Source of the DNA: a virus
Taxonomy: Duplodnaviria > Heunggongvirae > Uroviricota > Caudoviricetes
Length of the DNA stretch: 4,622 nucleotides
Direction: 5' to 3' (one strand)
IMG/VR virus record: IMGVR_UViG_2563366839_000003
Shown: piece by piece, positions 1-4,622 of the stretch
Numbering within the stretch: the first letter of the stretch is position 1
Layout: every line of letters starts with the position of its first letter
Translations under genes and position numbers: made by a program
The notes under the pieces: model-generated
What the model was told of the DNA's origin: nothing
The model's database searches: none
Seen by the model: the letters and a program-made list of their open reading frames with translations, nothing else

Positions 1-1329
1 CCGGGCTATTTTCAGATAACCGCCACGCCGCATCTTGCGGTTTATGATCCGACGGTACAGTTTGAGTTCTGGTTCTCGGAAAAGCGGATTACCGATATCA
101 GGAAGGTTGAAACCACAGCGCGCTATCTTGGCACGGCGCTGTACTGGATAGCCGCCAGTATCAATATCAGGCCGGGCTATGATTATTATTTTTACGTTCG
201 CAGTGTGAACACCGTTGGCAAATCGGCATTCGTGGAGGCTGTTGGTCAGCCGAGTGATGACGCATCCGGCTATCTGGATTTTTTCAAAGGCGAGATAGGG
301 AAAACCCATCTGGCTCAGGAGCTGTGGACGCAGATTGATAACGGTCAGCTTGCGCCTGACCTGACTGAAATCAGGACGTCCATAACGGATGTCAGCAATG
401 AAATAACACAGACCGTCAATAAGAAACTGGAAGACCAGAGTGCAGCGATCCAGCAGATACAGAAGGTTCAGGTTGATACAAATAATAACCTGAACAGCAT
501 GTGGGCAGTGAAGCTGCAGCAGATGCAGGACGGACGCCTTTATATTGCGGGTATCGGTGCCGGTATTGAGAACACCCCTGACGGCATGCAGAGTCAGGTG
601 CTGCTGGCAGCAGACAGGATTGCGATGATTAATCCTGCGAATGGCAACACAAAGCCGATGTTTGTTGGTCAGGGCGATCAGATATTCATGAATGAAGTGT
701 TCCTGAAACGCCTGACGGCCCCCACCATTACCAGCGGCGGTAATCCTCCGGCATTTTCCCTGACATCAGACGGGAGACTGACGGCGAAAAATGCGGATAT
801 CAGTGGCAGTGTGAATGCGAACTCAGGAACGCTCAACAATGTCACGATTAACCAGAACTGTACGATTAAGGGCATGCTGGAGGCGACCCAGGTCAGAGGA
901 GATTTCGTTAAAGCTGTATCAAAAGCCTTCCCGAAAAAAGTCGGTACGTGGGGTAACACGGAAACACCAAACGGTACGGTTACAGTCACCATCAGCGATG
1001 ATCATAACTTTGACCGCCAGATTATTATTCCGCCCATTATTTTTAACGGTATAGCGTATGACGATCCGGGGAGCGGAAATAACCCAGGAGGCACGCGATA
1101 CACGGGTTATGGTTTTGAAGTTCGCAAAAACGGCGTATTAATCGCATCCAGAGAAACTAAAGGGGCCATTCCCGGTAGTTACAGTGCAGTTATTGATATG
1201 CCGAGTGGCAGGGGAAGCGTCACTCTGGAGTTTAAGATTTTCCAGAAAGGCAATCAGGGGGCAGGCAATATCACCGACTGTACGGTGATTGTGACCAAAA
1301 AAGCCGCTTCCGGCATCAGTATTCGTTGA
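1..1329 (+). CDS. J: Tail tip host-specificity protein J (central tail fibre), C-terminal ~443 codons; 5'-partial (continues upstream of window)
   Basis: Frame 1 is open from position 1 with no stop until TGA at 1327-1329 (the track shows only the ATG-initiated part, 205..1329). The translation ([17 protein letters not shown]...[22 protein letters not shown]...KAASGISIR) matches my recollection of the C-terminal part of lambda gpJ. Gene order J-lom-stf with ~65-70 nt spacers matches lambda. Receptor specificity cannot be read from sequence alone. Confidence 0.88.
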
Positions 1330-1350: not shown

Positions 1351-1378
1351 GGGCGTCAGGAATGACGCCTTTTTTATT
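1351..1378 (+). terminator. Rho-independent terminator downstream of J
   Basis: GC-rich inverted repeat GGCGTCA (1352-1358) / TGACGCC (1363-1369) with a 4-nt loop (GGAA), followed by a T-rich tract (ttttttatt, ~1370-1378). It starts 22 nt after the J stop. Confidence 0.75.
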
Positions 1379-1388
1379 GCAGAAAAGC

Positions 1389-1394
1389 GAGAGG
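1389..1394 (+). promoter_or_regulatory. Shine-Dalgarno-like ribosome-binding site for lom
   Basis: GAGAGG sits 5 nt upstream of the ATG at 1400. Confidence 0.6.
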
Positions 1395-1399
1395 TAATT

Positions 1400-1471
1400 A
1401 TGCGTAAAGTTTGTGCAGCCATTTTGTCCGCAGCCATCTGTCTGGCCGTATCCGGTGCGCCTGCATGGGCG
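1400..1471 (+). other. lom: Predicted Sec signal peptide of Lom (24 aa, cleavage after AWA)
   Basis: N-terminal basic residues (RK), a hydrophobic core (AAILSAAICLAV) and an A-W-A small-residue site preceding SEHQ. Confidence 0.8.
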
Positions 1472-1999
1472 TCTGAACATCAGTCCACACTGAGCGCGGG
1501 GTATCTTCATGCCCGTACGAACGCTCCCGGCAGCGATAATCTGAACGGGATTAACGTGAAATACCGTTATGAGTTTACGGACACGCTGGGGCTGATTACG
1601 TCATTCAGTTATGCCAACGCTGAAGATGAGCAAAAAACGCATTACAGCGATACCCGCTGGCATGAGGATTCCGTGCGTAACCGCTGGTTCAGCGTGATGG
1701 CGGGGCCGTCTGTGCGCGTGAATGAATGGTTCAGCGCGTATGCGATGGCGGGTGTGGCTTACAGCCGTGTTTCGACTTTCTCCGGGGATTATCTCCGCGT
1801 AACTGACAACAAGGGGAAAACGCACGACGTGCTGACCGGAAGTGATGACGGTCGCCACAGCAACACGTCTCTGGCGTGGGGGGCTGGCGTGCAGTTTAAC
1901 CCGACCGAATCCGTGGCCATTGATGTCGCTTATGAAGGCTCCGGCAGTGGCGACTGGCGCACTGACGGTTTCATCGTGGGTGTCGGTTATAAGTTCTGA
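1400..1999 (+). CDS. lom: Outer-membrane protein Lom (Ail/Lom/PagC family 8-stranded beta-barrel); lysogenic-conversion 'moron' gene
   Basis: 199-aa ORF. Typical Sec signal peptide MRKVCAAILSAAICLAVSGAPAWA with an AxA cleavage motif. Alternating amphipathic beta-strand pattern and a C-terminal ...GVGYKF ending in Phe (OMP/BAM signature). Near-identical to my recollection of lambda Lom. Located between J and stf as in lambda. Confidence 0.95.
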   Translation: MRKVCAAILSAAICLAVSGAPAWASEHQSTLSAGYLHARTNAPGSDNLNGINVKYRYEFTDTLGLITSFSYANAEDEQKTHYSDTRWHEDSVRNRWFSVMAGPSVRVNEWFSAYAMAGVAYSRVSTFSGDYLRVTDNKGKTHDVLTGSDDGRHSNTSLAWGAGVQFNPTESVAIDVAYEGSGSGDWRTDGFIVGVGYKF

Positions 2000-2025
2000 T
2001 TAGCCAGGTAACACAGTGTTATGAC

Positions 2026-2052
2026 AGCCCGCCGGTTCAGGCGGGCTTTTTT
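2026..2052 (+). terminator. Rho-independent terminator downstream of lom
   Basis: Perfect 8-bp GC-rich stem AGCCCGCC (2026-2033) / GGCGGGCT (2040-2047) with a 6-nt loop (GGTTCA), followed by a T6 tract (2047-2052). It sits 27 nt after the lom stop. Confidence 0.85.
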
Positions 2053-2054
2053 GT

Positions 2055-2058
2055 GGGG
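2055..2058 (+). promoter_or_regulatory. Shine-Dalgarno-like GGGG for stf
   Basis: GGGG lies 5 nt upstream of the ATG at 2064, immediately after the lom terminator. Confidence 0.45.
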
Positions 2059-2063
2059 TGAAT

Positions 2064-4622
2064 ATGGCAGTAAAGATTTCAGGTGTACTGAAAGACGGTG
2101 CAGGTAAACCGGTACAGAACTGTACAATCCAGCTGAAAGCAAAACGTAACAGCACCACGGTGGTGGCGAACACGGTGGCCTCAGAAAATCCGGATGAAGC
2201 CGGGCGTTACAGCATGGACGTTGAGTACGGTCAGTACAGCGTTATTCTGTTGGTGGAAGGCTTCCCGCCATCGCATGCCGGGACCATCACCGTGTATGAA
2301 GACTCACAACCGGGTACGCTGAATGATTTTCTCGGTGCCATGACGGAGGATGATGTCCGTCCGGAGGCACTGCGCCGCTTTGAACTGATGGTGGAAGAGG
2401 TGGCGCGTAACGCGTCCGCAGTGGCGCAGAACACAGCAGCCGCGAAGAAGTCAGCCAGCGATGCCGGCACATCAGCCCGTGAGGCGGCAACCCATGCGAC
2501 TGATGCTGCAGGCTCAGCACGCGCAGCCAGCACGTCAGCCGGACAGGCCGCGTCGTCGGCTCAGTCAGCGACTTCCAGCGCAGGAACGGCATCAACAAAG
2601 GCCACTGAAGCATCAAAAAGTGCTGCCGCTGCAGAGTCCTCAAAAAGCGCGGCAGCTACCAGTGCCAGTGCCGCGAAAACGTCAGAAACGAATGCTGCAG
2701 CGTCACAACAATCAGCAGCCACTTCTGCATCCACCGCGACTACGAAAGCGTCAGAAGCTGCCACCTCAGCCCGGGATGCGGCGGCTTCAAAAGAGGCGGC
2801 AAAATCATCAGAAACGAACGCATCCTCGAGCGCCAGTAGCGCAGCTTCCTCGGCAACAGCGGCAGGAAATTCCGCGAAGGCCGCAAAAACGTCTGAGACG
2901 AATGCGGATAACAGCGCACAGGCGGCAGCAGACTCACAAACTGCATCGGCAAACTCCGCGACAGCAGCCAAAAAATCAGAAACCAACGCGAAAAATAGTG
3001 AGGCAGCAGCAAAGGTCAGCGAAACCAACGCTAAAGCGTCAGAGAACAAGGCGAAAGAATATCTCGACAAGGTCGGGGGACTCGTCAGCCCGATGACGCA
3101 ATACGATTGGCCCGTTGTTACTGGTAGTGAGCCTTTTTACATAAAGATCGCGAAACTTTCCGATCCTGGAAGCAAAGATTGCCATGTAACGCTAATGGTT
3201 ACTAATGCCGGTAACTACGGCTCCCCTTACGGAAACATTGACTTTATCGAGATCTCGGCGCGCGGTCTGCCTTCTTCGCTTACTGCGGATAATGTATCCC
3301 GTTACCTGAGTATACGCCGCTTAGGGTCAACCGGGCTAGCCAATAACAGCCAGATGCGTTACGGCCTGGTTAAAGGTGATGGCTTTATTGAGGTTTGGGC
3401 ATTCCAGAGTGCGTTTATTAACGACGCAAAGGTTGCGGTGCTGGCGCAGACAACACTAAGCACAGAATTATACATCCCAGACGGATTTGTTAAGCAAACC
3501 GCCGCGCCTTCTGGATATATTGAAGGCAACGTTGTAAGGATTTACGACCAGGTAAACAAGCCGACTAAAGCAGATTTGGGTCTTTCTAATGCTATGCTTA
3601 CAGGCGCTTTCGGTCTTGGCGGTAGCGGGATATCAACAAACGGCAAGATGAGCGATGTAGAGATCTTAAAAGCTCTGCGTGACAAAGGTGGTCATTTCTG
3701 GCGCGGTGATAAGCCGACCGGAAGCACGGCGACCATTTATAGCCACGGTTCTGGTATATTCTCGCGGTGCGGCGATACGTGGTCAGCGATCAATATCGAC
3801 TACTCAACCGCGAAGATTAAGATCTATGCCGGCAACGATGCCCGGCTTAACAACGGGACTTTTAGCGTCAATGAGCTATACGGCTCGGCAAACAAGCCGT
3901 CGAAATCGGATGTTGGACTTGGCAACGTAACGAACGATGCGCAGGTAAAAAAAACCGGCGATACAATGACCGGTGACTTGACAATCAAAAAAGGTACACC
4001 GTCAGTCTTCCTGCGGGCAGACAGTGGAGTCACCGCTTTGCGGTTTTATACTGGCGATAACACAGAGCGCGGCATAATCTATGCTGGTCCTAACACTGAT
4101 TCGCTTGGCGAAGTTCGCATCAGGGCAAAGACAGCAGGGGGGACATCAGGAGGGGATCTTGTTGTTCGTCACGACGGGAGGGTTGAAGTCCGTGATCTCA
4201 CAGTAGCGTATAAAATTAAAAGCAGAACGATTGAGATTGCAAATACCGACACTGACTCATCGGCAACTACGCTAAGCATCTATGGAGTACAGCACACGCC
4301 GTTGGTTTTAACGCGTTCTGGTTCTTCTGAAAATGTGTCCATTGGGTTTAAGTTAGACAACGTGAACCCAAAGTATCTTGGAATTGATACTAATGGGGAT
4401 CTGGCTTTTGGTGAGAGTCCTGATCAGAAAAAAAACAGCAAATTGATCACGCAAGCGAAACTCGACAAGGGATTAACGATTGGTGGTCAACTGGCTTTCA
4501 AAGGTACGACAGCGTTTTCAGCCGTTGCTACGTTCAGTGCCGGGATAGCAGGAGCCATCGAGCCGGAAAACATTGACGGCCAGACGGTTAATCTTAACAA
4601 CCTGACCATCATCAAGTCAGAT
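2064..4622 (+). CDS. stf: Side tail fibre protein Stf, mosaic; 3'-partial (no stop within window, at least 853 codons)
   Basis: Hand translation from ATG 2064 in frame 0 gives MAVKISGVLKDGAGKPVQNCTIQLKAKRNSTTV...; it is open to 4622 with no stop. The N-terminal ~110 aa match my recollection of the lambda Stf N-terminal domain. An Ala/Ser/Thr-rich shaft with SETNA repeats follows, then a distal region with tail-fibre motifs (NKPTKADLGLSN, NKPSKSDVGLGNVTN, GDTMTGDLTI). Position directly after lom is as in lambda. Confidence 0.9.
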   Translation, partial: MAVKISGVLKDGAGKPVQNCTIQLKAKRNSTTVVANTVASENPDEAGRYSMDVEYGQYSVILLVEGFPPSHAGTITVYEDSQPGTLNDFLGAMTEDDVRPEALRRFELMVEEVARNASAVAQNTAAAKKSASDAGTSAREAATHATDAAGSARAASTSAGQAASSAQSATSSAGTASTKATEASKSAAAAESSKSAAATSASAAKTSETNAAASQQSAATSASTATTKASEAATSARDAAASKEAAKSSETNASSSASSAASSATAAGNSAKAAKTSETNADNSAQAAADSQTASANSATAAKKSETNAKNSEAAAKVSETNAKASENKAKEYLDKVGGLVSPMTQYDWPVVTGSEPFYIKIAKLSDPGSKDCHVTLMVTNAGNYGSPYGNIDFIEISARGLPSSLTADNVSRYLSIRRLGSTGLANNSQMRYGLVKGDGFIEVWAFQSAFINDAKVAVLAQTTLSTELYIPDGFVKQTAAPSGYIEGNVVRIYDQVNKPTKADLGLSNAMLTGAFGLGGSGISTNGKMSDVEILKALRDKGGHFWRGDKPTGSTATIYSHGSGIFSRCGDTWSAINIDYSTAKIKIYAGNDARLNNGTFSVNELYGSANKPSKSDVGLGNVTNDAQVKKTGDTMTGDLTIKKGTPSVFLRADSGVTALRFYTGDNTERGIIYAGPNTDSLGEVRIRAKTAGGTSGGDLVVRHDGRVEVRDLTVAYKIKSRTIEIANTDTDSSATTLSIYGVQHTPLVLTRSGSSENVSIGFKLDNVNPKYLGIDTNGDLAFGESPDQKKNSKLITQAKLDKGLTIGGQLAFKGTTAFSAVATFSAGIAGAIEPENIDGQTVNLNNLTIIKSD
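2676..3032 (+). repeat. stf: Five intragenic copies of a ~21-nt unit encoding K-[TSKV]-S-E-T-N-A within the Ala/Ser-rich Stf shaft
   Basis: Copies at 2676-2696 (aaaacgtcagaaacgaatgct), 2802-2822 (aaatcatcagaaacgaacgca), 2885-2905 (aaaacgtctgagacgaatgcg), 2970-2990 (aaaaaatcagaaaccaacgcg) and 3011-3032 (aaaggtcagcgaaaccaacgct). They encode KTSETNA, KSSETNA, KTSETNA, KKSETNA and KVSETNA, set in an A/S/T-rich low-complexity context. Confidence 0.8.
3555..3940 (+). repeat. stf: Two copies of a tail-fibre sequence motif N-K-P-[TS]-K-[AS]-D-[LV]-G-L-[SG]-N, ~112 codons apart, in distal Stf
   Basis: Copy 1 at 3555-3590 (aacaagccgactaaagcagatttgggtctttctaat = NKPTKADLGLSN). Copy 2 at 3891-3940 (aacaagccgtcgaaatcggatgttggacttggcaacgtaacgaac = NKPSKSDVGLGNVTN). 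Both are preceded by an aromatic/hydrophobic pair plus Q/S (IYDQV / LYGSA). Confidence 0.7.

Follow-up and report, generated by a model that had tools for sequence, protein, structure and literature searches.

What kind of domain opens the distal arm of a tail fibre protein, in the interval between the end of its Ala/Ser-rich shaft and the first of its linker motifs? The question is raised by the stf gene carried on a stretch of 4,622 nucleotides (hereafter the window) of the caudoviral record IMGVR_UViG_2563366839_000003, in which the gene starts with an ATG at position 2064 on the plus strand, in frame 3, and runs open past the window end at 4622, so that its first 853 codons are available. 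An earlier note, made from the sequence alone, had singled out positions 3100-3550 as a part of Stf that could not be placed in a known family and that could be an inserted globular domain, possibly a knob, a carbohydrate-binding module or an enzyme. We found that this segment (Stf residues 346-492, window 3099-3539, plus strand) is almost certainly homologous to the first part of the fibre domain of pb1, the L-shaped tail fibre of phage T5. On balance we favour the view that it is the first globular subdomain of a pb1-type trimeric rod and that it has a structural role.

The evidence for homology comes from a long colinear alignment, in which Stf residues 234-853 match T5 pb1 residues 108-715 with 59% identity over 622 aligned positions, and within which the flagged segment is 62-65% identical to pb1 224-365. 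In agreement with this, profile PHROG 24369 covers Stf residues 211-853 and has a profile length of 1396, which is the length of pb1. The structure of pb1 has been determined by cryo-electron microscopy as CASP16 target T1257. In it, residues 1-40 serve as the anchor and residues 41-218 form a coiled coil, in which ~213-218 are a variable kink; residues 219-1263 are the rigid fibre domain of 500 Å, made of six subdomains, D1 to D6, that are connected by linkers (PMC12750041). Since the flagged segment aligns to pb1 224-365, just past the kink, we take it as the beginning of the fibre domain and presumably as subdomain D1, the name that we use for it below. The homology also settles two of the suggestions made for the segment earlier. 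It is globular, as discussed below, but it is not an insertion, being colinear with pb1; and it lacks a curated family, with no significant match of residues 346-492 in Pfam or NCBIfam, but it can be placed all the same. The single Pfam match on Stf was limited to residues 1-134 (PF08400). Neither single-sequence nor profile searches of the PDB returned a sequence match for residues 346-492 in a copy of that database that did not contain the pb1 structure (given as "PDB: N/A" in PMC12750041); the only sequence matches of Stf in that copy were 9e7m, from the N-terminus of lambda Stf, and, at a weak level, the Ala/Ser region of T7 gp17. Diverse relatives were collected with an exhaustive representative search, which gave 35 clusters at E<=1e-3, and with a 620-residue query, and were then aligned; a word-indexed search with a 170-residue query or a 9-sequence profile yielded short E. 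coli fragments alone.

Is the segment a domain at all, or is it simply a further part of the shaft? The 142-residue peptide quoted in the earlier note corresponds exactly to Stf residues 350-491 (3111-3536, frame 3), and its description as rich in beta-branched and aromatic residues, with a cysteine and without repeats, was accurate. Ala and Ser make up 56% of the shaft (residues 135-339) versus 18% of residues 346-492, aromatic residues 0.5% versus 10.9%, and Val, Ile and Thr together 12.7% versus 21.1%; C373 is the lone cysteine, and Tandem Repeats Finder detected no tandem repeat in residues 346-492. We modelled residues 336-505 as a monomer with AlphaFold2 (AF2) and obtained a confident all-beta structure (mean predicted local distance difference test, pLDDT, of 88.7; predicted template modelling score, pTM, of 0.84), in which some eight main strands were seen and no helix reached 4 residues. 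A second model, of residues 290-660, showed one unbroken helix at residues 291-339, a hinge at 340-345, the beta domain at 346-492, a linker, an alpha/beta subdomain at 531-605 and the second NKP motif. The limits that we give for the domain, 3099-3539, are based on this second model and are almost the same as those in the earlier note. Residues 346-492 are thus predicted to be a discrete all-beta globular domain, a beta-sandwich, which directly follows the helix and the hinge in the order seen around the pb1 kink. The hinge itself (LVSPMT, window 3081-3098, plus strand) is non-helical, has lower pLDDT and pairs with pb1 214-219, where it overlaps the variable kink. A segment that lies inside a long fibre protein, and for which the PHROG profiles carry only the label 'tail fiber protein', might still be ordinary shaft of the gp37 type with no discrete fold. 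We consider this very improbable, as the AF2 models contradict it with a compact and confident monomer, composition and repeat analysis set the segment apart from the shaft, and the authors of the T5 structure describe globular subdomains joined by linkers (PMC12750041).

The best structural match of the model was WceF of Pantoea stewartii (PDB 6tgf), and Foldseek, a check that had been proposed along with the original suggestion, also put WceF on top, with T4 gp9, KP1 gp9 and Kp9 gp42 below it. Superposition on the WceF-like jelly-roll beta-sandwich gave a significant score at 15% identity, and a profile search of the PDB sequences detected no sequence homology to WceF. In the WceF trimer, a jelly-roll sandwich of eight strands (residues 531-667) comes after a short triple beta-helix (PMC7949094). 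Similar beta-sandwich domains occur in phage tailspikes and in RaK2 gp526, for which a "large beta-sandwich" matching WceF has already been reported (PMC10253068). In the BFVD library of viral models the fold was found in many fibres, among them KP27 gp37 (template modelling score, TM, 0.87) and a RaK2 tail fibre (TM 0.73 at 17% identity). On the other hand, no fold similarity was found to the R-pyocin fibre knobs (PDB 6cl5/6cl6), despite the RefSeq product name of these proteins. The arrangement in WceF differs from that in Stf, as the sandwich of WceF comes after the catalytic beta-helix, near the C-terminus, whereas that of Stf lies near the N-terminal end of the rod.

As whole proteins, WceF and several other of the matched chains are depolymerases, which could be taken to mean that D1 is itself an enzymatic domain, a glycosidase or an esterase, as had been contemplated. 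However, the part that is matched is most likely the non-catalytic sandwich and not the catalytic beta-helix, no hydrolase family was matched in Pfam or NCBIfam, and the family alignment contains no conserved His, no Ser-His-Asp triad and no paired-acid pattern. With a beta-sandwich fold and without conserved catalytic residues, we rejected this possibility, to which we give hardly any credence. The residues that are invariant in the family alignment are G386, R400 and P482 only, and A363, R419 and L460 are nearly so; C373 is not conserved, as relatives have Ser, Ala or Gly in its place. As read from the alignment, this pattern of conservation is structural in character.

How did a pb1-type rod come to be part of a lambdoid fibre? 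Over residues 1-284, Stf shares 86% identity with orf-401 of lambda, which is the N-terminal portion of lambda Stf, and beyond residue 284 there is no similarity to orf-401. The homologies to lambda (up to 284) and to pb1 (from 234) overlap at residues 234-284, window 2763-2915, in the Ala/Ser coiled coil of the SETNA type. Because of this overlap residues 234-284 are the evident crossover zone, and are likely to be the recombination junction of a lambda/T5 chimera. The resemblance to lambda Stf extends to the collar domain (PF08400), to the J-lom-stf gene order and to the overall plan, since in Ur-lambda Stf, too, the collar is followed by a proximal coiled coil and a hinge leads on to the distal arm (PMC12617516). 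In contrast, the distal arm of lambda is gp37-like (PMC12617516) and without the flagged domain, and in lambda a separate tail fibre assembly gene follows. The Stf studied here departs from the lambda arrangement, in which a distal arm of that type (orf-314 region) goes with a separate assembly gene, and in related prophages the downstream tfa is a truncated remnant only. With T5 pb1 it shares, in the same order, a SETNA-type coiled coil, a short kink, D1, the NKPTKADLGL linker and further subdomains. In full-length relatives (1253-1258 residues) the likeness extends to the C-terminal end, as they finish, like T5 pb1 and the fibre of Matisse, with a Peptidase_S74 intramolecular chaperone; one full-length relative, with 98% DNA identity to window 1363-4611, has 1258 residues and carries this domain (PF13884) at residues 1115-1166. 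The differences from pb1 are the anchor (residues 1-40 under the T5 collar, versus the lambda-type PF08400 collar domain in Stf), a coiled coil that is about 120 residues longer in Stf, the divergence of D2 and later subdomains (37-52% identity) and the lifestyle of the carrier, T5 being a lytic Tequintavirus and the host element of this Stf a lambdoid prophage.

The domain turned out to be widely distributed. Using tblastn we found the segment in 273 phage records, including T5 and its relatives, the Klebsiella T5-like Sugarlandvirus, K50-type siphoviruses, Slopekvirus and Muldoonvirus, and partially in Webervirus fibres. In the Slopekvirus myoviruses of Klebsiella it lies in the distal long fibre (gp37-like), at residues ~235-400, and in the Muldoonvirus of Serratia in a gp36A-like protein, at residues ~500-690. 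In these myovirus fibres the same domain, at 28-47% identity, is followed by the same NKP-type linker. In siphoviruses, as in Stf, a SETNA coiled coil precedes the domain, whereas in the T4-like phages it comes after beta-rich segments and not a coiled coil, and in the Serratia phages of this group NKPxKxDxGL-type motifs flank it on both sides. In complete E. coli genomes, a survey of prophage carriers of the kind proposed at the outset placed the segment DNA at 666 sites in 419 of 5426 genomes, nearly all with at least 90% identity, and the lambda-type Stf N-terminus at 15,380 sites in 4844 genomes, which puts the share of E. coli Stf genes with the segment at about 4%.

Among 26 diverse carriers the anchors include those of lambda Stf, P2 and T4 gp36 types (PF08400, PF12571 and PF03903), and the C-terminal ends include Peptidase_S74 (16/26), Gp34_trimer and gp37_C. 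Because the carriers differ in both their anchors and their C-terminal ends, D1 is not specific to a given tip. In our reading it would be neither the receptor-binding tip nor an enzyme. A profile search found one copy of D1 in each of the full-length fibres Stf, pb1, Matisse, WSPA, PS2 and IMGroot; a candidate second copy at pb1 737-765 showed weak similarity that was not significant, and was rejected. We also observed, in a protein of 2219 residues (P0160), eleven weak partial matches to central D1 between residues ~528 and 2141, with a period of ~155 residues. This hints that this protein may be built of tandem D1-like sandwiches, the single E-values being not significant.

Conservation along the rod is uneven. 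D1 is better conserved than D2, both towards T5 (62% versus 37% identity) and towards Matisse (47% versus 38%), and the linkers are the most conserved parts from D1 onwards, L1 being 76% and L2 85% identical to T5. L1 (residues 493-530, window 3540-3653, plus strand) contains the motif NKPTKADLGL, which begins at residue 498 (3555-3584), so that the flagged segment does lie between the shaft and the first such motif, and its pLDDT falls below 50 at residues 510-516. L2 (residues 606-640) contains the second motif, NKPSKSDVGL, at residues 610-619 (3891-3920, plus strand). Between the two linkers is a small alpha/beta subdomain, presumably D2, with one helix and 5 strands in the AF2 model (residues 531-605, window 3654-3878, plus strand), and after L2 more pb1-type fibre subdomains (residues 641-853, window 3984-4622, plus strand) continue in colinearity with T5 pb1 up to its residue 715. 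In one relative of 1153 residues (P0139), D2 is missing and D1 is joined straight to the second motif, NKPSKSDVGL, within residues 343-747, which suggests that the NKPxKxDxGL linkers may act as module junctions or recombination points. The better conservation of D1 over D2, the high conservation of the linkers and the protein without D2 all fit a modular rod, in which D1 would be a conserved architectural bead and the linkers its joints.

We hypothesise that this Stf arose when recombination joined a pb1-type rod to an anchor and coiled coil of the lambda type. A chain would leave the three-helix coiled coil (residues ~135-339), cross the six-residue hinge LVSPMT and adopt its beta-sandwich fold over residues 346-492, about 147 in all. 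With three of these sandwiches around the fibre axis, a knob could form that opens the rigid distal arm and passes on to the NKPxKxDxGL linker and the next subdomain. The role of the domain would be architectural, in that it may set the register of the trimer, turn alpha-helical into beta structure at the elbow and add rigidity and spacing, and at the same time it could be a portable cassette set between anchors on one side and receptor-binding tips on the other, both of them variable. Four elements of this proposal come directly from the analysis: the pb1 homology, a discrete fold, the location behind the hinge and the distribution of the domain.

Several points weigh against it. The knob of three sandwiches and the contacts between chains are deduced from monomer models, and the purely structural role is likewise a deduction. 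The label D1 follows from position, the limits of D1 not being printed in PMC12750041, and the jelly-roll domain of WceF is very probably the matched region judging by its size and secondary structure. In addition, the jelly-roll sandwich is a common lectin fold, and K361, D393, N410, R418/R419, R432, Y433, E443 and W445 are conserved polar or aromatic residues for which a ligand site is as plausible as an interface. These last points would suit a function as a lectin-like accessory carbohydrate-binding domain, making a second, low-affinity contact with surface polysaccharide beside the C-terminal tip, which we regard as unlikely. Quite unlikely, in our judgement, is that D1 is a docking platform for a branch fibre, for an assembly factor or for the tail when the fibre is stowed, comparable to attachment domains of the gp9/gp10 type. 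T4 and KP1 baseplate gp9 are among the structural matches, which speaks in its favour, as does the position of D1 at the elbow, where branched fibres are attached in other phages; branched LtfA/LtfB fibres are known in the T5-like phage DT57C (PMC10713586). A broader idea, doubtful but deserving to be spelled out, is that D1 is not a passive bead but a conserved functional site at the fibre elbow, either a second lectin-type glycan site or an elbow lock. In the first form, D1 would allow pb1-type fibres to touch O-antigen or capsule at several points. The elbow lock would act through contacts of D1 with the coiled-coil end, which would set and change the hinge angle in the course of adsorption, by analogy with the hinge of Ur-lambda, which opens from 107 to 134 degrees. 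In either form K361, D393, R400, N410, R419, R432, Y433, E443 and W445 would make up the ligand or latch surface. If the domain bound glycans or controlled the elbow, reversible adsorption would gain a further step in its mechanism, and no finding points there.

As for the remainder of the window, it opens inside the tail-tip gene J, of which it contains the 3' part (1-1329, plus strand, an open frame from position 1 with its stop at 1327-1329), followed by lom, for an Ail/Lom outer-membrane protein (1400-1999, plus strand), an open reading frame (ORF) of 199 codons at the position where Lom is annotated in three of the loci compared. The annotations of lambda, phage Ayreon and E. coli prophages show the order J-lom-stf as well. 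Between lom and stf we noted a strong terminator-like hairpin at 2026-2047 (8 pairs, 7 of them G-C, then a T run), which sits 17 nucleotides upstream of the stf start; in Ayreon a terminator is annotated at the equivalent place. Stf itself begins with the lambda-type collar/anchor domain (residues 1-134, window 2064-2465, plus strand; PF08400, E 6.6e-72), of which residues 1-94 are near-identical to PDB structure 9e7m of the Ur-lambda Stf N-terminus, and continues with the Ala/Ser-rich coiled coil of the proximal arm (residues 135-339, window 2466-3080, plus strand). Over the shaft, at 2231-3096, long ORFs in alternative frames occur on both strands (for example 2461-3096, plus strand, 211 aa, and 2561-3070, minus strand, 169 aa), and the G+C content reaches up to 0.63 with a high AT skew. 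These ORFs most likely arise as a side effect of the repetitive codon composition (GCN/AGC); a comparable opposite-strand ORF, 'orf206b', is annotated in lambda. For the flagged region, a minus-strand ORF of 56 aa (3359-3529) was considered as rival coding and found to be without support, no Rfam family matched, and no promoter or terminator-like site was found within 3099-3539.

The domain also has consequences for how these genes are annotated. In one E. coli locus (L011, 4954-8715 of NZ_CP076527, the counterpart of the window from 2064 on), RefSeq splits stf into an N-terminal 'pseudogene' and a 'pyocin knob domain-containing S74 family peptidase', with the split at Met344, in the hinge (window 3093). 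The stf ORF of this locus is open throughout, with 1253 codons and no internal stop, and for this reason the split looks like an annotation artefact. A frameshift just before D1 in many E. coli copies was considered and discarded, as this locus, the example checked, has an intact ORF. We also observed that many database proteins of 915-916 aa span about 82% of the query of 620 residues, which agrees with a start close to Met344.

Part of this picture is already known, since the structure of the pb1 counterpart has been determined and the beta-sandwich recurs in phage fibres and spikes, and the value of the finding is more practical than conceptual. Defining a family for the domain would improve the annotation of these fibres, and the hinge and the NKPxKxDxGL linkers are natural fusion points for fibre engineers. 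For the biology of these phages, D1 is a well-conserved and portable module, which marks where anchor arm and distal arm meet in the fibres of lambdoid prophages and of T5-like, Webervirus and T4-like phages.

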